64,000 nt of DNA from a virus (lineage: Duplodnaviria > Caudoviricetes). Positions within the stretch are counted from its first letter, which is position 1, and each line of letters begins with the position of its first letter. The notes below the pieces were generated by a model. That model saw only the letters and a list, made by a program, of their open reading frames with translations, was not told the DNA's origin and ran no database searches. Positions 3,857-30,656 of the stretch are shown here, piece by piece. The DNA lies in IMG/VR virus record IMGVR_UViG_3300027991_000002, positions 1 through 64,000 of that record. The stretch is one strand, 5' to 3'. The position numbers were made by a program, and so were the translations under genes.

Positions 3857-5248
3857 ATGATTACTTTACGTCCCAACCAAGTTGAGCCAACCGATATAGG
3901 TATTCGGTTTTTCCAAAAGAGCGAGCCGCTCCCCTCTATTATTGTCGCGCCAACAGCTTTCGGAAAGTCAATAGTGATTGCAAAAATTGCCGAGAGCGTA
4001 GAAGATAATTTACTTATTCTGCAACCCTCAAAGGAATTGCTCGAACAAAATTTCGGGAAGTACATTGCGCTTGGCGGTCATGCCGCGATTTATTCCGCGT
4101 CTTTCAACTCTCGAAAAATCGGTGACGTCACTTACGCAACCATCGGTTCGATTAAAAAACTTGGCGCACACTTCAAAGAACTTGGCTTTACCAAAATGAT
4201 TATTGACGAGGCACATCTCTATCCGAGAGAGTCCGATTCGATGCTCGGAAAATTTTTAGCCGACAGTCAGATAACTCACGTGCTTGGTTTAACCGCAACC
4301 CCTTTAAAACTTCAAACTAATTTCGATGCAGGTGGAAATCCGTTTTCAAAATTAGTCATGCTTACGAGCAAGAGCAAGAAAGGAAACTTCTTCAAAGATA
4401 TAATTTACGTTTCACAAATACAAGAGATGGTTGAATTAAATTTTTGGAGTAAAATTGAATATGAGCAGTACGATATTGATGAATCAGGATTAGTTTACAA
4501 TTCCACCAAAGCTGAATTTACAGAGGAGAGTATTCGCGCTGTTTATAAATCCAACAACTTAGAAAAAATGATTCGGGCAAAGTTGGATGAGGTAAGCCAC
4601 AGGAAAAGCGTTGCTGTTTTTGTTCCGTCCGTTGCCGAAGCGCGGGAGCTTGCCGAAGCCATACCAAACTCCGTTGCTATATACGGAAATATGCCAGCCA
4701 AAGAAAGAACGGCAGCCGTTAAAGGATTTAAGTCAGGAAGCATAAAAACTGTTTTCAATGTCAATGTTTTGTCCGTTGGGTTCGACCATCCCGAACTCGA
4801 CACTATCATCTGCGCTCGTTCTACTGCCTCACTTGCGTGGTTCTATCAGGCAATGGGCAGAGGCACTCGTATCGCTCCGAACAAAAAGGATTGTTTGATT
4901 GTGGACTTCTCCGGCAACGTAAGGCGGTTCGGTAAAATTGAGAAGTTGTATTACAAAAAAGAAAATATCTGGAAGTTATACGGTGAGGGAGGTAAGCTGA
5001 TAACAGGATGCCCGATACACGAACTCGGTGAGCGAACAGAGTCATCCGAAGTATTGCGTGAAAAAGCAAAAACCGAACCGATACTAACCTTTGGGCAGCA
5101 CAAAGGCAAGCATATAGCCGATGTCCCCGAAGATTACCGTAAATGGATGATGTCTGATAGGTTTGAATGGAACAAGTGGAATATTCACATAAAAAAGTAC
5201 ATTGAAAAAAATCTTATGCCTAAAAAAGAGGAGGTTATCAATGGGTAA
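3857..5248 (+). CDS. SF2 (DEAH-type) DNA helicase with a C-terminal DUF3820-like domain
   Basis: APTAFGKS (I), IIDEAH (II), TAT (III), LSVGFDHP (V), QAMGRGTR (VI); C-terminal LTFGQHKGKHIADVPEDYRKW. Confidence 0.85.
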   Translation: MITLRPNQVEPTDIGIRFFQKSEPLPSIIVAPTAFGKSIVIAKIAESVEDNLLILQPSKELLEQNFGKYIALGGHAAIYSASFNSRKIGDVTYATIGSIKKLGAHFKELGFTKMIIDEAHLYPRESDSMLGKFLADSQITHVLGLTATPLKLQTNFDAGGNPFSKLVMLTSKSKKGNFFKDIIYVSQIQEMVELNFWSKIEYEQYDIDESGLVYNSTKAEFTEESIRAVYKSNNLEKMIRAKLDEVSHRKSVAVFVPSVAEARELAEAIPNSVAIYGNMPAKERTAAVKGFKSGSIKTVFNVNVLSVGFDHPELDTIICARSTASLAWFYQAMGRGTRIAPNKKDCLIVDFSGNVRRFGKIEKLYYKKENIWKLYGEGGKLITGCPIHELGERTESSEVLREKAKTEPILTFGQHKGKHIADVPEDYRKWMMSDRFEWNKWNIHIKKYIEKNLMPKKEEVING

Positions 5249-10088: not shown

Positions 10089-10742
10089 ATGATGGAACTG
10101 AACCAAGAAACTTTATTCGGGAAGAAGGTAATCTCTACCATTAGTTTTAATGAACAGGAGATTATCAGAGATATTCTGTTTCTTCATGCAGATGGAAAAT
10201 ATATTGATTGCGACCCGACTTATTCGGTAGGGAATTTTTATAAAGACGGATTGCCAAAGCCAAGATTAAAGTTTGACCTTGCGCCTCAAATAGCAGGGGT
10301 AGTTCAAGCCGATGCGCGGAATTTGCCTTTGGAAGATTTGAGTATAAATATTTTAATGTTCGACCCGCCTTTCATTTGCGGCATACCAGCCGAAGCACCT
10401 ACCGGAATTATTCGTGAACGGTTTGGGTTCTACAAAAACGTGCCGGAGTTGTGGCAATTCTACCTTGACGCTATAAGAGAATTTGAAAGAGTAATTGCGC
10501 CAAAAGGATTATTGATTTTCAAATGTCAGGATACTGTTGATGGAGGTAAAAATTATTTTACTCATTGTCAGGTTTTGAATATGGCGGTTGAAACAGGTTT
10601 TTATCCCAAAGACCTTTTCATACTTGCCGCAAAAAACAGAATCGTAGATGTGCCGATGGATTCACAGCAACACGCTCGTAAATTTCATTCTTACTTTTGG
10701 GTGTTTGAAAAAATAAAATCAAAAGTAAATTATGTCAAATAA
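10089..10742 (+). CDS. SAM-dependent DNA methyltransferase (amino-MTase)
   Basis: QADARNLPL..LMFDPPF (motif IV); LIFKCQD. Confidence 0.7.
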   Translation: MMELNQETLFGKKVISTISFNEQEIIRDILFLHADGKYIDCDPTYSVGNFYKDGLPKPRLKFDLAPQIAGVVQADARNLPLEDLSINILMFDPPFICGIPAEAPTGIIRERFGFYKNVPELWQFYLDAIREFERVIAPKGLLIFKCQDTVDGGKNYFTHCQVLNMAVETGFYPKDLFILAAKNRIVDVPMDSQQHARKFHSYFWVFEKIKSKVNYVK

Positions 10743-23445: not shown

Positions 23446-23531
23446 GAGTGCGCATGGATTTTATGCGGTGGGGTTCGTTCTTTTTTCTGTTTTCAATTTT
23501 TAGCGTTGGCATTAATTAAACAATCATAAAT

Positions 23532-23948
23532 ATGAAAAGGCAACAAACAATAGTATCGGAAAAAGAAATCCTGAAACTCGGTGGAGTTGATAAGGGATAT
23601 AAATTTGAACGCACCAAGCATGAACATGGGGATAGAGAAAAAATATTCTATAAGCAATGGAAGAAGGAAAATAAGCAGTTACGATGGCTAAACTTCGGGC
23701 AGGGAATATTGCAGGATTTATTTGCCATTACTGGTAATAATCCTTTCAACTTTATGAGGGGAGGATTGATAGGTTGGAAATTAATAATCAACAGGAGGGA
23801 TAGATACATTGTGGCAACAGTGATGCAATGGCTCGGAACAAATTGCGGTTGGTGCTGGCTTGAAGAAACACTTAGGAAGTGCGGGTACAGATTAGAAAAA
23901 ATTGAGCGGGAGGAAAAAATTGAAAACAGAAAAAAGAATGTCGCATAA
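23532..23948 (+). CDS. Cassette gene, hypothetical (138 aa)
   Basis: Stop TAA lies inside the GCATAAC core box. Confidence 0.65.
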   Translation: MKRQQTIVSEKEILKLGGVDKGYKFERTKHEHGDREKIFYKQWKKENKQLRWLNFGQGILQDLFAITGNNPFNFMRGGLIGWKLIINRRDRYIVATVMQWLGTNCGWCWLEETLRKCGYRLEKIEREEKIENRKKNVA

Positions 23949-24000
23949 CGGCAAACGCTTTATGCCGTTATTTTCAATGGCATTAAAGCGTATGTTCTAT
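23943..24000 (-). mobile_element. attC-like site 10 (58 bp)
   Basis: Minus strand: ATAGAAC-ATA-CGCTTTAATGCC-loop-GGCATAAAGCG-TTTGCC-GTTATGC. Confidence 0.85.
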
Positions 24001-24025
24001 TTAGGTTTTTAAAATTCTTTGAGCG

Positions 24026-24238
24026 ATGGCAAACAAAATATGCAGAATAACAATATTAGCTTTCATGTTCGGAGATATACCGAAAGGAATTGAGAACGGA
24101 TATGATGATTGGGACTTAGAAAACGGAATACAATATTGTGAAGAATTGATGCGCTATGAAGGAATGACACATGAACCGATGGATAAGTTTGAGTTGAAGA
24201 AATATATTGAATGGGCAAAACAGAAATTGAAAGAGTGA
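24026..24238 (+). CDS. Cassette gene, hypothetical (70 aa)
   Basis: ORF lies between matching cassette-end IRs. Confidence 0.6.
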   Translation: MANKICRITILAFMFGDIPKGIENGYDDWDLENGIQYCEELMRYEGMTHEPMDKFELKKYIEWAKQKLKE

Positions 24239-24261
24239 GTGTGGCAATTTTAAAAACTTGA

Positions 24262-24598
24262 ATAGAACGTTGCTCGGATTGAAGAATGTAAATTAAAATT
24301 ATAGCGATGCACAAGAACAGAACAGCAAACGGATTAAGGTTGCAAGAGCAACATAACCAACGTTACAAGAAAATGTTGATAGGAAAAAAAGCGAAGGACG
24401 GGCGAACGGTTATTAACACAGAATGGATTGGAAACAGCACATACGGATGTGTTCGATTATTTTTCGATAATCAAACCGATGATTTATGTAGTAGTACAAT
24501 GGGATTTAAACCGACAAGAGAGGATTTTACAGACAGGTACGGAATTACATGGTGAGCGATGGCAATTTTAATTTATTTCTTTCAATCTGGTGTTAGTT
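24262..24598 (-). mobile_element. attC-like site 9 (337 bp, gene in loop)
   Basis: ATAGAAC..ggattgaagaatgtaaattaaaatt / aattttaatttatttctttcaatct..GTTAGTT. Confidence 0.8.
24307..24555 (+). CDS. Cassette gene inside the attC loop, hypothetical (82 aa)
   Basis: ORF bracketed by AGCGATG direct repeats. Confidence 0.6.
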   Translation: MHKNRTANGLRLQEQHNQRYKKMLIGKKAKDGRTVINTEWIGNSTYGCVRLFFDNQTDDLCSSTMGFKPTREDFTDRYGITW

Positions 24599-24628
24599 TT
24601 AGTTTTTAACAGGCAAACAAAATAGAAA

Positions 24629-24820
24629 ATGGAAAAGTTATCAGACAAAGCAGAAAAGAGAATTAAGAAAATCTATCCTGATGCGAGGGCAGAGAGGGAT
24701 GGCGCAATGTTCTTTATAGTAACTGACTTACTTAAAGGAGAGGACAGAACTTTAGGTGGTGGATTTAGCAGAGATGGCGCGTGGTGTAGCGCGGGTTGCT
24801 CTGTGCCTGTTAAAAATTGA
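24629..24820 (+). CDS. Cassette gene, hypothetical (63 aa)
   Basis: Stop codon abuts the AACTAAC core box. Confidence 0.6.
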   Translation: MEKLSDKAEKRIKKIYPDARAERDGAMFFIVTDLLKGEDRTLGGGFSRDGAWCSAGCSVPVKN

Positions 24821-25166
24821 AACTAACGAGGAAGGATTTGTGAAGTAAAATTTTCGATTAAAAACTATAACCTTTAAAAACAGAAAAGCGATGGAAGTAA
24901 AAGGATTTTATATCAGAAGCAATGGCGACCCTTCGGTTGGTATATTCTCTGCTCAATGGGAATTGCGAAATGACTTCGTATTTGACGACATAGAAGATTT
25001 GGAATATTTCAGGTCGGGGCTTGCGCGTTTGCTCGGTGAGCATTGCGGGGAGAGGTGCTATGTGCAAACTTTTGAGGAGTGGGCTGAACAAATTAAATTA
25101 GAAGAAAAAATGTGTAGTGACGCACAGAAGGAAGAAAATTTTATTTCATCAAATCCTGTGTTGTCG
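24821..25166 (-). mobile_element. attC-like site 8 (346 bp)
   Basis: AACTAAC..aggatttgtgaagtaaaatt / aattttatttcatcaaatcct..GTTGTCG. Confidence 0.8.
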
Positions 25167-25253
25167 GATAGTTTGCCTTTTGATTTAGCAAGTCATCCTG
25201 ACACAGAAGCTGACGGACATGTATTCTGCGGTAAATGTGGAAAAGAAAAGTGA
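24891..25253 (+). CDS. Cassette gene, hypothetical (120 aa); starts in the attC loop and reads through the arm
   Basis: ORF track; ends 10 nt before CGACAAC. Confidence 0.6.
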   Translation: MEVKGFYIRSNGDPSVGIFSAQWELRNDFVFDDIEDLEYFRSGLARLLGEHCGERCYVQTFEEWAEQIKLEEKMCSDAQKEENFISSNPVLSDSLPFDLASHPDTEADGHVFCGKCGKEK

Positions 25254-25263
25254 GGCAAATTTC

Positions 25264-25795
25264 CGACAACGGGAAGGGGATTGAAGAATGTATTTTAATT
25301 TTTTAGCATGGGCAAACTAATGGTAACACCAATATTCCAAAACGAAGCGTTCGCGTTCATCGAACAACACCACAGGCATCATAGAAAGCCAGTAGGCAGC
25401 GTGTTTCAGATTGCAGTGAGCGAGGGTGAGCGTGTGGCAGGGGTGGCGGTTGTTGGCAGACCAAACGGACGAAAACAGCAGGACGGATTTACATTAGAAG
25501 TTACACGGCTATGCACAGACGGAACTAAAAATGCCTGCTCAATGCTTTATGCAGCTTGCTGGAGAGCAGCCAAAGAATTAGGTTATCGAAAACTGATTAC
25601 ATACATACTGAACACTGAGCCGGGGACATCATTAAAAGCAAGCGGGTGGAGATGCGTTGGGGAGCGCGGTGGCGGGAGTTGGAACGTACCGAGCCGCCCC
25701 CGTGTTGACAAACATCCGTTGCAGAAAAAATTGTTATTTGAAATCGAGTAGCGCGATGGGAAAATTAAAATATTTCTTTCAATCCCATGTTGTTG
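25264..25795 (-). mobile_element. attC-like site 7 (532 bp, gene in loop)
   Basis: CGACAAC..gggattgaagaatgtattttaatttt / aaaattaaaatatttctttcaatccc..GTTGTTG. Confidence 0.8.
25308..25751 (+). CDS. XF1762-family / Mom-like GNAT-fold protein (cassette gene in attC loop)
   Basis: FIEQHHRHH..GVAVVGRP..LEVTRLCTDG..NACSMLYAACWRAAKELGYRKLITY..SLKASGW. Confidence 0.75.
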   Translation: MGKLMVTPIFQNEAFAFIEQHHRHHRKPVGSVFQIAVSEGERVAGVAVVGRPNGRKQQDGFTLEVTRLCTDGTKNACSMLYAACWRAAKELGYRKLITYILNTEPGTSLKASGWRCVGERGGGSWNVPSRPRVDKHPLQKKLLFEIE

Positions 25796-25828
25796 GCAGC
25801 GTAGCTGAGTTTGCTTTTCGCAAATTGC

Positions 25829-26038
25829 CAACAACGTCACGCAGGATTTATGAAGGATTTTTTACGATTTTAAAACCAACAAATATGAAAACACCAAAAG
25901 AAATTTTAGAAGGAAAACAAGCATTCAAAGATTTCCTGTATAAAGCACCCGACTGGATTAGGGAAGACATTATTGCAGCAATGATGGAATACGCATTGGA
26001 GCAAGTAAAAAATCTTTCATTAAATCCTGTTGTTGTTG
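25829..26038 (-). mobile_element. attC-like site 6 (210 bp)
   Basis: CAACAAC..caggatttatgaaggattttttac / gtaaaaaatctttcattaaatcctg..GTTGTTG. Confidence 0.8.
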
Positions 26039-26145
26039 GGCGCAGCGAACAGTTAAAATCTGACTTGTACAAATTCAGGGATATGTATTGTCAAAATATT
26101 GACTTAGCTACCATAGATGAATATGTTGACGGCTTAGGATTTTAA
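25887..26145 (+). CDS. Cassette gene, hypothetical (MKTPKEILEG..)
   Basis: ATG 25887 follows an AT-rich leader; the upstream extension in the track crosses cassette boundaries and was rejected. Confidence 0.55.
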
Positions 26146-26149
26146 TTGC

Positions 26150-26280
26150 CAACAACGTTCATCGGATTTATTCTCGTTGCATTAAATGATAAAAACTTAA
26201 ACCATAAATAAAACTCATTATGAAAAACAAACCTACGATTAAAAAGAAAGCCAGCAATGGAATGAAATCCGTTGTTCATG
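26150..26280 (-). mobile_element. attC-like site 5 (131 bp)
   Basis: CAACAAC..cggatttattctcgttgc / gcaatggaatgaaatccg..GTTCATG. Confidence 0.75.
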
Positions 26281-26540
26281 GCAGTGCGGATAAATGGTCA
26301 AAAATTAAGTGGAGCAAAAAAGTTTTGCAAAAAGCGCAGGAAAATCATATCTGGTTGAACGCTTTTGATTGCGTAAGACCGACACCTGCATTCTGCGAAA
26401 GTCTTGGTAGGTCAATCATCAATAAATTACGGGATGAAGAAAATTTAATCCCGATGAGTGGCATTACATCGGATGTTGAAGCGATGCGAGAGATTGCAAA
26501 ACTTACCCCGATAATGTACATGAGCATTAACAAGAGCTAA
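26220..26540 (+). CDS. Cassette gene, hypothetical (106 aa)
   Basis: Starts in the attC loop and ends before CATGAAC. Confidence 0.6.
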   Translation: MKNKPTIKKKASNGMKSVVHGSADKWSKIKWSKKVLQKAQENHIWLNAFDCVRPTPAFCESLGRSIINKLRDEENLIPMSGITSDVEAMREIAKLTPIMYMSINKS

Positions 26541-26554
26541 GATGTGAGCATTGC

Positions 26555-26611
26555 CATGAACGGTAGAGATTGTTGCCGTTAATTTCAATGGCATACAATC
26601 TAATGTTATCT
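26555..26611 (-). mobile_element. attC-like site 4 (57 bp)
   Basis: Minus strand: AGATAAC-ATTA-GATTGTATGCC-loop-GGCAACAATC-TCTACC-GTTCATG. Confidence 0.85.
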
Positions 26612-26643
26612 GCCGTTTTGGATTAACTAAATAAATATAAATT

Positions 26644-26949
26644 ATGAAAGCAAAAGAGTATGCACAAAGGGTAACAAGTACAGAAAATGTTCAAGATGCA
26701 ATGACTGAGCTTGGCAAATGCGGAAAAGATTTTTTCAACGAATTTATCGCAATGAGAAAATCACGTAACATAAAAACCGATGATGGATTATTAACGCTGG
26801 TGAAAGAGTTCGATAATAAATTCAGAACATTTTCTGTACTTGTGGATTCACACTACAAAGGGATGGTTAAACCAAATGGATTCATTGAACTGCTTCGGGA
26901 GTTTGTTCCTGTACTTGCTAATGAATATGAAAGGAAAAATGGCAGATAA
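26644..26949 (+). CDS. Cassette gene, hypothetical (101 aa)
   Basis: Stop TAA lies inside the AGATAAC core box. Confidence 0.65.
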   Translation: MKAKEYAQRVTSTENVQDAMTELGKCGKDFFNEFIAMRKSRNIKTDDGLLTLVKEFDNKFRTFSVLVDSHYKGMVKPNGFIELLREFVPVLANEYERKNGR

Positions 26950-27778
26950 CGGTTACGGCTTTAAGCAGTGGGGATTATTAGCACAAATGTTCAATCGAAG
27001 CGATAAAAAAAATAAAGAAAAATTTTTAGGGAGGCATTTTTAATTTAATCATTTAATCATAAATAAAACAAAATGGAAAAAGTAACAAACACAGCAAAGA
27101 ACCCACGACTTGAATGGTTGATGGGTGGAAATCCTAATGCTATTGAAGCACAGGAAGTGCAAGGACAAAAGGAACTTGTGAAATCATCACAACTACCAGC
27201 GAAAGTAAATTCGCCAAGAGGAGTGAACATTGAGGAGCAATACGCCTTGATGGGAATAAAAGTAATTGGCAAAACCAAAGGAGATGAATTATTCCTTGAT
27301 GTGGAATTGCCAAATGGGTGGAAGAAGGAAGCAACCGACCATTCAATGTGGAATAAATTGGTTGATGATAAAGGAAGGGAAAGGGCAAGTTTCTTTTACA
27401 AAGCTGCATTTTATGACCGAGATGCTTTTGTGAATTTTAGCACACGGTATAATTGGAATGCCAATTACGAGGATAAGGACAATGTGAGCTACTTTGTAAA
27501 AGATAACTCCATAGGTGAAATTGTATTTGAAACAGAAAAGATGAGTAAAGATGTAAAACAGCCGAACTACTTTAAAATACAGGATGAGTTACAAAACCAA
27601 TGTAAACAATTTCTGAAAGACAAGTTCCCTGAACACGAAAACATAAATGCTTATTGGAATTAAATCATTTAATCATTAAGAGCGTGGGCAAAAATTTTTC
27701 TTTATTTTTTTTCGTTCATATCAGCACGAACTTAAATATGGAGCGATACACCCCATTGCTTTAAAGCCGATGTTATGC
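26944..27778 (-). mobile_element. attC-like site 3 (835 bp, gene in loop)
   Basis: AGATAAC..cggctttaagcagtgggg / ccccattgctttaaagccg..GTTATGC, plus inner arms aaaaaaataaagaaaaattttt / aaaaatttttctttattttttt. Confidence 0.8.
27073..27663 (+). CDS. Cassette gene in attC loop, conserved phage hypothetical (196 aa)
   Basis: GRERASFFYKAAFYDRDAF motif; flanked by a 14-bp direct repeat. Confidence 0.65.
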   Translation: MEKVTNTAKNPRLEWLMGGNPNAIEAQEVQGQKELVKSSQLPAKVNSPRGVNIEEQYALMGIKVIGKTKGDELFLDVELPNGWKKEATDHSMWNKLVDDKGRERASFFYKAAFYDRDAFVNFSTRYNWNANYEDKDNVSYFVKDNSIGEIVFETEKMSKDVKQPNYFKIQDELQNQCKQFLKDKFPEHENINAYWN

Positions 27779-27940
27779 GAAGTTGCCAATACCAAATTCA
27801 AAAAGACAAAAAACTCATTGGCAATTTTGCATAACGTTCGAGGATAAACGAAGTGCATGAGTAACCGAAAAATTAACTGAACAGCAAGTAAGAAATTTTA
27901 ATAAAAATATTTTTAGGGAGGGAATTTAAAAAACAACATT

Positions 27941-28099
27941 ATGAAAATAAACTTTGATGTGAACCTGCCGGATTGGTTTGTAATAACCGGACTTACTGTT
28001 TTTACAGTTTGGATGATTCTTGACATAATAAAAAACTGGCTCAAACTTATCATTTGGAATTATGAGAGGAAAATTAAAAAAATGGAAAACGAAAAGTAA
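27941..28099 (+). CDS. Small membrane protein (52 aa; not in the ORF track)
   Basis: MKINFDVNLPDWFVITGLTVFTVWMILDII..; TAATG coupling to the next gene. Confidence 0.5.
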   Translation: MKINFDVNLPDWFVITGLTVFTVWMILDIIKNWLKLIIWNYERKIKKMENEK

Positions 28100-28524
28100 T
28101 GGCAATCTTAAACTATACAACCTCCATTGATTCTGAAAAGACAATCGGAGAGATTCAAAAATGCTTAGTGAAGCACGGGGCAATGAAAATCACCACTGAT
28201 TATCAGAACGGGATTCCATGCGCTGTTACTTTCTGCCTAATCATCAAAGAGAATATGGTTGGGTTTGCATTGCCAGCAAATTATTCAGGCGTTCTCAGGG
28301 CAATGAAGCGAGATGGAAAAGTTCCGCGCTCAAAATGCACAGAGGAGCAGGCAATAAAAGTTTCATGGAGAATAGTGAAAGACTGGGTTGAAGCGCAGAT
28401 GGCAATAGTTGAAGCTGAACTTGCACAGATGGCGGAAGTGTTTTTGCCGTATGCAGTTACAAAGAATGGAAACACTCTTTGGAAACAGATGGAAGGAAAC
28501 GGAATGTTATTACTTAACTCTTAA
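28099..28524 (+). CDS. Cassette gene in attC loop, conserved phage hypothetical (141 aa)
   Basis: NYTTSID..WRIVKDWVEAQMA..EVFLPY. Confidence 0.65.
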   Translation: MAILNYTTSIDSEKTIGEIQKCLVKHGAMKITTDYQNGIPCAVTFCLIIKENMVGFALPANYSGVLRAMKRDGKVPRSKCTEEQAIKVSWRIVKDWVEAQMAIVEAELAQMAEVFLPYAVTKNGNTLWKQMEGNGMLLLNS

Positions 28525-28692
28525 CCTTTTTACAATTTGAAAAATTGTGATGAGCGTAGGCAAAATATTTTTATTAAAATTTCTCTAACCGTAATTGACA
28601 GTACAGATGGAAGCATTTCGTTTATCCTTTGTTATCAGATGAAAAATTATCCCTTTTGAGCGCGGGATGCTCGTAATTTAATAATTACAAAA

Positions 28693-28890
28693 ATGAAAAC
28701 ATGGGAATATAAAATTAATAGCGTAAATGAATATGATGCTTTTGAAAATGTTGGCGGCTCGGTTGCCGAAAGAATTTTAGATGGAGCGTCAAAAGACGGA
28801 TGGGAATTAGTGTCTGTTGTCGGAATAAACACAATGGTAATTTTTTACTTTAAAAGAGAATTAAATAATGGAGGTGCGGTGGCGGGATAA
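28693..28890 (+). CDS. DUF4177-like protein (cassette gene)
   Basis: WEYKI..GWELVSVV..FYFKRE. Confidence 0.6.
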   Translation: MKTWEYKINSVNEYDAFENVGGSVAERILDGASKDGWELVSVVGINTMVIFYFKRELNNGGAVAG

Positions 28891-28899
28891 TTTTTTTTC

Positions 28900-29027
28900 T
28901 GATAACGGATGAAGATAAAAGAAGCAGCCCTAAATAGAATGTTCAGCGGGTACGTAACCGATAGGGTAACTGAACTTAGGCAGACCTCCGATTTTGCTCG
29001 GCTGTTTCTTTTTATCTTGTGTTGTGT
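28900..29027 (-). mobile_element. attC-like site 1 (128 bp)
   Basis: TGATAAC..aagataaaagaagcagcc / ggctgtttctttttatctt..GTTGTGT. Confidence 0.8.
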
Positions 29028-29085
29028 GAGAGCATAGGGATTTCAGGCGATGGGCAGTTTTTAACTTAAAATAATTTTAAAGCGT

Positions 29086-29400
29086 ATGGCAAAGATTTAT
29101 TTCAGCAAATACAATGATGAGGAAGTGGCTTATACATTGGACTATTGGAAAACTTACATGGAAGAAAACCTCATTGAAGAAATGACATTGTTTGAAGGCA
29201 AGCGAATGACAGGCGAGGGCTATTTCTATTGTAAAGAATACTTTGAAGTTGGATTAGCGAGAGAGTCATGTGGAAAGATATGCGAGGGATATAAGCCGAA
29301 CAATGGCAAGAATGGCAGATGCAAACATTATGGATATTGCTATGAGCCAACAGATAAAAGGTTGGTGTTGCAAGCGGGCGGAAAAATTATTTTAAGTTAA
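29086..29400 (+). CDS. Cassette gene, Cys-rich hypothetical (104 aa)
   Basis: CKEY..CGKICEGYKP.NGKNGRCKHYGYCY. Confidence 0.6.
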   Translation: MAKIYFSKYNDEEVAYTLDYWKTYMEENLIEEMTLFEGKRMTGEGYFYCKEYFEVGLARESCGKICEGYKPNNGKNGRCKHYGYCYEPTDKRLVLQAGGKIILS

Positions 29401-29407
29401 AAATTTC

Positions 29408-29470
29408 ACACAACAAATATATGTATTTTTCTCTTACAACTATTTGAAACTTAAACCATAACACCATGCA
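29408..29470 (-). mobile_element. Candidate attI site
   Basis: Minus-strand G|TTGTGT core matches cassette 1 but has no attC arms; lies just upstream of the int-like gene. Confidence 0.55.
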
Positions 29471-29492: not shown

Positions 29493-30062
29493 ATGAATAA
29501 CGCTCTCATTTATGCTTTAGCTTGTCCGGAAACAGGTCAAATAAAATATGTTGGCAAAACAAATCATTCATTAAAAAGAAGATTGCAAAATCATATAAAT
29601 AACAAGAGGTCAAAAAGCAGGTGCTCTTTTTGGATTAGAGAATTAAAAAGTAAAAATATCTATCCTGAAATAATATTACTTGAAACAGTAATTGATGGGC
29701 TATGGAGATTTAGAGAATCAGAATGGATAAAAAACTTTGGCAGAGATAATTTATTAAATGAAAACGCAGGCGGTGGAGGAATGGGGACATCTAAGATAAA
29801 TTATGTTTTTTCTTTTTCCGAATCTCTTTCACAATATTCTGAAAACACTAAGAGAAACTATTTAAGCATAGTAAAAATATTCTTACATGAACATGGATGC
29901 GTTTCAACATCAGCAGTTATTATTAATAAAAAAATGATTGAAAATTATATGATGAGATTTAAGAATAGACACAGTTATAATCAAACCTTGTCTGCATTAA
30001 AAAAATTCTTTTTATTTTTAGGTCAACCAAGAAAATTAAATGCAATTAAATATTGGTATTAA
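29493..30062 (+). CDS. GIY-YIG nuclease fused to an integron-type integrase N-terminal (SAM-like) domain; no catalytic recombinase domain
   Basis: LIYALACPETGQIKYVGKT..RL..H..E (GIY-YIG); YSENTKRNYLSIVKIFL..SYNQTLSALKKFF..QPRK (IntI-like core-binding domain). Confidence 0.7.
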   Translation: MNNALIYALACPETGQIKYVGKTNHSLKRRLQNHINNKRSKSRCSFWIRELKSKNIYPEIILLETVIDGLWRFRESEWIKNFGRDNLLNENAGGGGMGTSKINYVFSFSESLSQYSENTKRNYLSIVKIFLHEHGCVSTSAVIINKKMIENYMMRFKNRHSYNQTLSALKKFFLFLGQPRKLNAIKYWY

Positions 30063-30147
30063 CTCTCTCCTTGCAAACTTATATTCACATGAGTTCAAAG
30101 ATTGTAGCGAATGTGGTTACTCCGCTAAACTTTATCCGGCAGTCAGC

Positions 30148-30231
30148 TTAACCTTGTCCCCGATATTTTTTAAATGAATCGGACTTGTTACGGTGTTTTT
30201 TATGCTTCCCCCGCTTTCGTGATTTACTCAC
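30148..30231 (-). CDS. Tiny basic protein (27 aa)
   Basis: GTG start; MSKSRKRGKHKKHRNKSDSFKKYRGQG. Confidence 0.45.
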   Translation of the reverse strand: MSKSRKRGKHKKHRNKSDSFKKYRGQG

Positions 30232-30260: not shown

Positions 30261-30656
30261 TCACTCAATAAATAAAACTTCTTGTTGGAAATTCTTATTC
30301 ATGCCAAAATGAATACTTTTATTTTTGAAATTTATTCCAATTCGTTGCATACCTAATTTTAAAGCTGATTTTACATATAGATATGCTTTATGGCTGTCCC
30401 AAGTTCCAGCAGGTCTTTTGCAAAGAATATCGGCTACCTCTGTGGGTATAAACGTATGCTCATCTGTGGCGAATCCCCCTACTGCAACTGAATGTTCAGG
30501 AGTGGAATAGGTTCGTGTGACAATTATCGGAACTCCTGCATCCTCGCGTATGTCATCCAATAGTTTTATGAATTCAAAAGTACACTTCTCAAAGTCAATG
30601 TTTTTATCATTGAGCGATGAGAAGTGCTTAAAAGAATTTGCTTGGTCAGGTGTCAA
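30261..30656 (-). CDS. Endolysin, peptidase M15-like
   Basis: LLDDIREDAGVPIIVT..H..ADI..RIGI..SIHFG. Confidence 0.7.
   Translation of the reverse strand: MTPDQANSFKHFSSLNDKNIDFEKCTFEFIKLLDDIREDAGVPIIVTRTYSTPEHSVAVGGFATDEHTFIPTEVADILCKRPAGTWDSHKAYLYVKSALKLGMQRIGINFKNKSIHFGMNKNFQQEVLFIE

Follow-up and report, generated by a model that had tools for sequence, protein, structure and literature searches.

With moderate confidence we identify the open reading frame (ORF) at 29493–30062 of a phage genome as the gene of a homing-type selfish GIY-YIG endonuclease, whose core-binding (CB) domain was captured from a neighbouring Xer-like recombinase. The DNA analysed, called the window below, is a stretch of 64,000 nucleotides from a phage record of 75,207 bp with direct terminal repeats. 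A preliminary description of the window had taken the ORF for a GIY-YIG nuclease fused to the N-terminal domain of an integron integrase (IntI). To judge by a layout and an end point shared with 13 relatives, the ORF is a full-length member of a rare two-domain family of its own, and not a truncated integrase.

The + strand of the genome carries helicase, primase-polymerase, methyltransferase, Mom-like and exonuclease genes (about 2.5–30 kb), and the − strand virion, endolysin and exonuclease genes (about 30–64 kb). The nuclease gene is the last gene of the + strand and is transcribed towards the late and lysis genes of the − strand. The features of this region are as follows.

23478–29403, + strand: array of single small genes, each bracketed by inverted repeats of 19–28 nt.
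29493–30062, + strand: two-domain nuclease gene, an ORF of 189 aa (protein P0001), assigned from Pfam, the family and a structure model.
29499–29747, + strand: GIY-YIG nuclease domain, residues 3–85, with the order beta-beta-alpha-alpha-beta-alpha; PF01541 over its cut-off.
29769–29792, + strand: glycine-rich flexible linker, residues 93–100, the only stretch with pLDDT below 50.
29802–30038, + strand: core-binding (SAM-like) four-helix domain of tyrosine-recombinase type, residues 104–182, assigned from Pfam, profiles and the model.
30261–30656, − strand: endolysin-like gene, the first of the converging minus-strand late block (PHROG 894, E 2.6e-7).

Inverted-repeat pairs scoring at least 17 numbered eight in the 64-kb window, all of them inside the array, and shuffled sequences gave none. 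The nuclease gene lies at the downstream end of the array and runs in the same direction as the cassette ORFs, which are on the + strand upstream of it; the divergent, minus-strand array of the preliminary description is therefore not upheld. The last closing repeat arm is 90 nt from the nuclease ATG, and the corresponding distance is 66–98 nt in three other loci (L001, L007 and L008). Related platforms that have no nuclease gene show the same polarity, with 25 hairpin pairs upstream and 3 downstream in 33 loci. Neither the nuclease gene nor a nuclease–recombinase unit is itself a hairpin-bracketed cassette, as none of nine loci had a bracketing inverted repeat. Scans for Rfam families, tRNAs and terminators found nothing relevant.

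Pfam matched residues 5–84 of P0001 to the GIY-YIG domain (PF01541; E 1.3e-7, 32.2 bits against a cut-off of 22.6), and a scan of the 75-kb genome found no second GIY-YIG gene. The positions Y7, Y19-V-G21, R30, H34, E75 and N89 are present in order, and from the order and spacing of the motifs we take the Y..Y..R..H..E..N positions to be the catalytic residues of I-TevI. An AlphaFold model of P0001 (mean pLDDT 88) places a beta-beta-alpha-alpha-beta-alpha fold at residues 3–85, a disordered glycine linker at 93–100 and four helices between 104 and 175 (104–111, 117–133, 146–153 and 159–175). When the model was searched with Foldseek, the N-terminal half resembled the I-TevI catalytic domain (1mk0, TM 0.73 on target) and the N-terminal domains of UvrC, and the C-terminal half resembled the CB domains of XerA, Cre, XerD and IntI. 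The ORF ends at the linker that joins the CB and catalytic domains of recombinases, and it contains no R-H-R-Y catalytic domain. Pentatricopeptide-repeat matches of P0001 in a sequence search of the PDB were rejected as an artefact, being weak matches summed over repeats. The preliminary description thus had the GIY-YIG part right, and also the point at which the ORF stops, where a catalytic domain should begin.

In Pfam the C-terminal half was assigned marginally, residues 114–176 matching Phage_int_SAM_1 (E 1.1e-4; 22.9 bits, just over the cut-off of 22.3). Phage_int_SAM_4, the profile named for this half beforehand, scored 20.5 bits on P0001, under its cut-off of 27, but it matches 14 of the 17 aligned family members (best E 2.9e-11), which makes the assignment firm. 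A profile of the family, run against solved structures, matched the CB domains of XerA (5hxy, E 9.4e-8) and VchIntIA (2a3v, E 3.6e-4). The half is therefore a CB domain, as the preliminary description had it; the IntI type that it had added does not hold, the closest relatives being Xer-like.

To collect the family, HMMER was run exhaustively over 1.8 billion representatives, and it returned 14 full-length relatives of P0001 with 174–250 aa and 33–45% identity. Thirteen of them have both domains, and the C-terminal half of the other, P0013, looks unrelated. All 13 relatives with a CB domain finish at the same point, with a conserved ...NQPKKLxxIKYxY tail. Among 14 members G21, E75 and N89 are invariant and Y19, R30 and H34 nearly so, and the linker glycines G93, G94 and G96 are invariant across the family. 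A distant relative of 456 aa (P0121) runs on into a complete recombinase catalytic domain. A word-indexed homologue search with P0001 found P0001 only; the same kind of search with the family profile found few members at normal lengths and none among longer proteins, which is weak evidence. The databases searched held no named member of the family and no cultured-phage record that matched the protein over both domains. Phages of Polaribacter and Cellulophaga carry the small integrase, and in the one such record examined, Polaribacter phage Leef_1, a series of small genes precedes the integrase, and upstream of it there is no nuclease gene. The conserved two-domain family, the intact catalytic residues and the common end point argue for one of the options raised in the preliminary description, that of a selected chimeric nuclease for att-like DNA.

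In five lineages (P0002, P0005, P0006, P0007 and P0010) the stop codon of the nuclease gene overlaps or abuts the ATG of a complete tyrosine recombinase of 264–279 aa, the ATG usually lying inside the ...KYEY codons of the nuclease. The best family for these partners was the XerA-like NF040815, with 163–200 bits and a cut-off of 220; they reached no curated cut-off. With the IntI model (TIGR02249 / NF011946), whose cut-off is 265, they scored 136–166 bits and matched only as two separate stretches. The predicted partner is thus a small Xer-like enzyme of the Xer/IntI superfamily, and not IntI. A full-length recombinase at this locus, which the preliminary description had proposed looking for in relatives, is accordingly found in these five lineages as a separate gene, and is missing from six of 11. 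In L008 the recombinase gene is followed by NinG, a recombination gene.

A profile built from the five recombinases matched residues 106–188 of P0001 with an E value of 8.7e-13, so the CB domains of nuclease and recombinase are paralogous. The nuclease CB domains group apart, with mutual scores of 99–216 against 65–156 with the recombinase CB domains. Since they group together and not with their own partners, the capture of the domain appears to be old. Co-variation of a nuclease CB domain with the CB domain of its own partner was looked for and was not seen.

The same five-recombinase profile detects what is left of a recombinase gene immediately downstream of the nuclease gene in the window:

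30074–30151, + strand: 3′ stub of the deleted partner recombinase gene, QTYIHMSS..TPLNFIR followed by a stop, containing the catalytic-tyrosine block and having no start codon.

The match covers 30074–30139 on the + strand at model positions 254–275 of 276 (E 0.046), and is the second best of 3917 six-frame segments of the window, the next-best segment having an E value of 1.2. Two single recombinases also find the stub by tblastn, at ranks 2 and 3 of about 1000 HSPs. When the 198-nt gap was shuffled, none of 2000 shuffles reached the stub score of 11.1 bits, and the best scored 5.5. The stop codon of the stub, at 30149–30151, is within about 2 codons of the ends of intact recombinases, and the stub corresponds to the last ~22–28 codons of the gene. 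At the other end the recombinase ATG is missing, the window having AAATATTGGTAT where AAATATGAATAT is expected. No match to Phage_integrase (PF00589) was found in the whole 75-kb genome. These alignments indicate that a separate downstream recombinase gene is deleted in this phage, with a 3′ stub left behind. The preliminary description had seen no catalytic remnant downstream, and the stub with its catalytic-tyrosine block corrects it; its suggestion that the array was left without a recombinase of its own agrees with the lack of a recombinase catalytic domain in the 75-kb genome. With no recombinase of its own, the array of this phage would depend for cassette movement on a recombinase acting in trans or on homologous recombination stimulated by the nuclease. 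A syntenic relative with the undeleted state was not found by a single-protein locus search or by a search with the exonuclease gene. A tblastn search of all fetched loci with 17 flanking genes, in which the positive control worked, gave no match at E 1e-6 and marginal ones at 1e-2.

Loss of the recombinase is not confined to this phage. Among the 11 nuclease-bearing lineages with sequence context, six have no intact recombinase, and in these the nuclease ORF is intact. The recombinase remnants in the six are listed here.

P0001 (window), + strand: model positions 254–275, E 0.046.
P0004 (L004): model positions 238–262, E 2e-10.
P0012 (L015): model positions 240–271, E 4e-11; the L016 copy has an additional in-frame stop.
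P0009 (L011): the first 13 codons only (5′ stub).
P0003 (L006): no trace.
P0015 (L018): no trace.

In three of the four stubs it is the 3′ end of the gene that is kept, with the last 30–45 codons. The breakpoints of the deletions vary, lying at about codon 0, 3, 5 or 13 on the 5′ side and at about codons 233–250 on the 3′ side, and P0004 clusters with a partner-bearing member (support 95/94). The differing breakpoints and the placement of P0004 in the tree together indicate that the deletions were independent, and they exclude a single ancestral deletion for all the orphans. Deletion between two platform pseudo-sites within the recombinase gene was also considered, and neither the weight matrix nor the nhmmer profile described below found such sites. 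The stub in the window is far more decayed than those of L004 and L015 (11 bits against 32–35 bits), so the deletion in this phage is presumably old.

Upstream of the nuclease gene lies a conserved non-coding block, referred to here as the platform block:

29399–29451, + strand: conserved non-coding platform block, about ATTGC...YTAAC.TA..ATATGTAT...AAC.A.TTGAAA.

The DNA profile of the block was trained only on positions −85 to −16 of 40 nuclease-free recombinase genes, and in nuclease-free loci the block lies at about −75 to −20 of the recombinase ATG. The sole match of the profile in the 64-kb window is at 29399–29444 (E 0.076), and a weight matrix also has its top score in the window at the block (17.8, with 7.1 for the runner-up). 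The profile matches eight of 12 nuclease-bearing loci (the window and seven others), once each and on the + strand, and in all eight the match is 4–104 nt upstream of the nuclease ATG. Most phages therefore have the order array, platform block, recombinase, and a few have the nuclease gene between block and recombinase. The positions of the block in the two types of locus indicate that the nuclease gene is a precise insertion before the recombinase ATG. The block itself is probably the promoter of the operon, an attI-like recombinase site, or both.

The occurrence of the nuclease at these platforms was surveyed in 80 loci on viral contigs (IMG/VR), chosen because their recombinases are 41–100% identical to one of the five partners. 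The nuclease gene was present in one of the 64 loci with enough upstream sequence, the query partner's own contig, and absent from the other 63; most nuclease-bearing contigs come from collections other than IMG/VR, the source of this census. A tree built from 42 recombinases requires five changes to accommodate the five with a linked nuclease, all of them forced by well-supported branches. One pair of contigs, from the P0012 lineage and not from that of P0001, was informative about transfer, the remaining pairs being of the same strain. In this pair (L015 and L016) a single mismatch was counted over the 597 nt of the nuclease gene; identity was 92.9% over the 99 nt that precede it, 77.3% in the recombinase stub and about 63% farther on. 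Purifying selection cannot give this pattern, because synonymous sites would then differ too; recent transfer of the gene can. The family thus combines a nuclease and a separate DNA-binding domain on a linker with sporadic presence at one precise insertion point, as expected of homing endonucleases.

These observations lead us to the following scheme. The CB domain would have been taken long ago from the small Xer-like recombinases at the fixed end of the array. Its paralogy and position suggest that it docks on the recombinase's own site, which may be the platform block, the AAC/GTT boxes at the hairpin bases, or both. The GIY-YIG domain, held on the flexible glycine linker, would cut nearby in the manner of I-TevI. 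On a co-infecting nuclease-free platform, repair of the break would copy the nuclease gene into the space between site and recombinase ATG, and may also co-convert flanking cassettes. By its conserved positions the nuclease gene of this phage looks intact.

The main rival to the homing reading is a cooperating accessory nuclease, which would dock beside the Xer-like recombinase through its paralogous CB domain, by analogy with XerC/XerD, and would nick or resolve intermediates of hairpin-cassette recombination; in this phage it would be the orphan of a broken module. We regard this as possible though unlikely. Tight translational coupling, with stop and start codons overlapping or abutting in five diverged lineages, is a counterpoint to homing and fits such a protein as well, as do the paralogous CB fold shared by nuclease and recombinase and the constant position of the nuclease at the array end. 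Recombination genes occur nearby, such as the NinG gene that follows the recombinase in L008, and the GIY-YIG nuclease of the Tsy transposon offers a precedent (PMC10293859). Against a standing partnership, the nuclease is absent from 63 of 64 related recombinase platforms, and the nuclease-linked recombinases are scattered over the recombinase tree. Moreover, the nuclease ORF is still intact in the six nuclease-bearing lineages, of 11, whose recombinase is lost, the mosaic boundary in L015/L016 falls at the 3′ end of the nuclease gene, and the CB domains show no partner-specific co-variation.

A further idea is that the nuclease, by cutting at the platform and the hairpin boxes, drives the exchange of cassettes between co-infecting phages by break-induced recombination, and so replaces or competes with the recombinase. 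We think this rather unlikely. If true, it would account for the repeated loss of the recombinase after the arrival of the nuclease, and it would be a recombinase-independent way to run an integron-like array.

It is less likely still that the P0001 gene, whatever the family does elsewhere, is a functionless leftover that has been decaying since the recombinase was lost. The partner is deleted, and the decay of its stub points to an old event. P0001 is also the most divergent member of the family, with the longest branch among the close members, and six of its seven departures from conserved columns fall in the CB domain; as a counterpoint to homing, it could therefore be drifting. The frame is nevertheless open over 189 codons, with every catalytic and glycine-linker position kept. 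P0001 retains 54 of 61 family-conserved columns (0.89), inside the family range of 0.78–0.93, its model is confident (pLDDT 88), and other orphan lineages have intact nuclease genes too.

Finally, an integron integrase gene that lost its catalytic half when a GIY-YIG homing endonuclease inserted, as the preliminary description had proposed, would account for a CB domain without a catalytic domain beside an array, but is extremely unlikely: 13 relatives keep the same layout and end point, relatives have the recombinase as a gene of its own farther downstream, where this phage has the stub, the partner recombinases fail the IntI models, and a GIY-YIG domain N-terminal to the CB domain is an order that a single insertion cannot produce. 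What survives of that proposal is its homing component; the truncation does not, P0001 being a full-length family member and the recombinase separate and Xer-like.

The nearest known systems are I-TevI and the Seg proteins of T4, which are free-standing phage GIY-YIG homing endonucleases. Like them, P0001 begins with a GIY-YIG catalytic domain that a flexible linker joins to a DNA-binding module at the C-terminus, and the family is sporadic among related phages, at a fixed intergenic point beside a conserved gene and, in the one informative pair of contigs, with a sharp break of identity at the boundary. The module differs in being the CB domain of a tyrosine recombinase and not a helix-turn-helix, a zinc finger or a NUMOD, and the target suggested for P0001 is the recombinase's own site, both homing and cleavage being putative. 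XerC and XerD are comparable as two adjacent paralogous proteins with a shared CB domain that could occupy neighbouring half-sites; unlike them, one partner here carries a nuclease where the catalytic domain of a recombinase would be, and this partner is missing from most platforms.

The arrangement of nuclease, linker and DNA-binding domain is the general layout of homing endonucleases (PMC10448857). Odn, the origin-directed nuclease of ICP1 phages, belongs to the GIY-YIG superfamily (T5orf172) and has acquired a RepA_N DNA-binding domain; it is aimed at the site of the protein that donated the domain, and attacks the origin of a hostile satellite (PMC10448857). P0001 likewise carries the DNA-binding domain of another DNA-binding protein. 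Its donor, unlike that of Odn, is a neighbouring gene in its own genome, with the nuclease gene sitting as an insertion in the donor's operon.

Tsy is a bacterial transposon that targets comM, and its GIY-YIG nuclease is encoded in one operon with tyrosine recombinases; the nuclease is dispensable and boosts transposition (PMC10293859). The passages used here mention no CB-domain fusion for the Tsy nuclease; P0001 has one and stands in a phage cassette array. The distribution of the P0001 family, set beside that account of Tsy, argues for selfish mobility over a standing partnership.

Arrays with attC-like sites and no integrase (CALINs) occur in virulent phages (PMC9892861). Arrays of the type described here are integron-like in having a recombinase of the Xer/IntI superfamily at their fixed end, a conserved site between array and recombinase gene, and cassettes separated by folded sites with AAC/GTT boxes. 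They differ from an integron in that the recombinase is small and Xer-like, fails the IntI models, and is co-directional with the cassettes and downstream of them rather than divergent; the nuclease has no counterpart in integrons.

A literature search found no paper on a GIY-YIG nuclease with a tyrosine-recombinase core-binding domain. P0001 and its relatives would add a new type of targeting module, a tyrosine recombinase's own CB domain, to the modular GIY-YIG homing endonucleases. After Odn, they would also be the second case in nature of a phage nuclease that finds its target through a domain taken from the very protein whose site is attacked. For annotation, the family is a caution that proteins beside arrays described as having the N-terminal domain of an integrase only need not be broken integrases. 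The captured CB domain and the platform block together point to the place where the array recombinase binds in the hairpin-cassette arrays of Bacteroidota-type phages. Six of 11 lineages have lost the recombinase after the nuclease arrived, which suggests that a selfish nuclease and the recombination platform are in conflict.

Three independent deletions in the recombinase gene, the small Xer-like tyrosine recombinase gene found directly 3′ of the nuclease gene, all spared its last ~25-45 codons, which form the catalytic-Tyr block. The retained sequences are:

Window 30074-30151, recombinase 3′ stub
L004 (P0004 lineage) 685-759, recombinase 3′ stub
L015 (P0012 lineage) 904-1008, recombinase 3′ stub

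The common 3′ limit is not accounted for by any pseudo-site or repeat. One possibility is that a cis element in the 3′ end of the recombinase gene lies behind this shared limit.

In a tree of 42 loci, unevenly sampled, the terminal branch of each of the five nuclease-linked recombinases was longer than those of the nuclease-free recombinases next to it. The terminal branch of the L008 recombinase measured 0.41, compared with 0.06-0.14 for nuclease-free neighbours, and that of the L001 recombinase 2.75. With that caveat on sampling, the longer branches would fit a relaxation of constraint on the recombinase once the nuclease has arrived.

A single protein, P0121 (456 aa, L005:889-2259), combines the GIY-YIG and core-binding (CB) domains with the catalytic domain of a tyrosine recombinase, present in full (Phage_integrase match at E 4.2e-27), and with an extra tail of ~75 aa. 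This fusion was seen only once, and could have originated by joining of a nuclease-recombinase gene pair.

Other genes lie beside or near the nuclease or recombinase. In the P0015 lineage, the gene overlapping the nuclease stop by 14 nt (L018:1017-1442) encodes a non-recombinase protein of 141 aa, which starts ...IIGIDTGVNTGFA. Its sole match was to DUF460, weak and below the cut-off, which makes a nuclease of RNase-H-fold or RuvC-like type a possibility. Two further loci contain:

L008:11450-11998, NinG/Rap-type gene directly 3′ of the recombinase (Pfam, above cut-off)
L012:6307-6691, TnpB/Cas12f-like (OrfB_IS605) gene, a few kb downstream of the nuclease-recombinase pair

The L008 platform thus holds a further recombination-related gene.

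The cultured Polaribacter phage Leef_1 (L017) has a related small integrase. About 55 nt upstream of its ATG, at 4900-4967, lies a sequence, GCTAAC...TATATAC, weakly similar to the platform block, the conserved non-coding sequence preceding the recombinase in nuclease-free loci.

Within the window's array of hairpin-bracketed cassettes, a perfect 19-nt inverted repeat (26674-26692 / 26825-26843) differs from the other pairs in being internal to a cassette ORF (26644-26949) rather than flanking it. Modification genes in the window include:

25308-25751, Mom-like DNA-modification gene, a single hairpin-bracketed cassette
10089-10742, DNA methyltransferase gene in the replication module

In both L007 and L008, cassettes encoding an N6_N4 methyltransferase immediately precede the nuclease gene. 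They recall the methyltransferase cassettes reported for phage CALINs.
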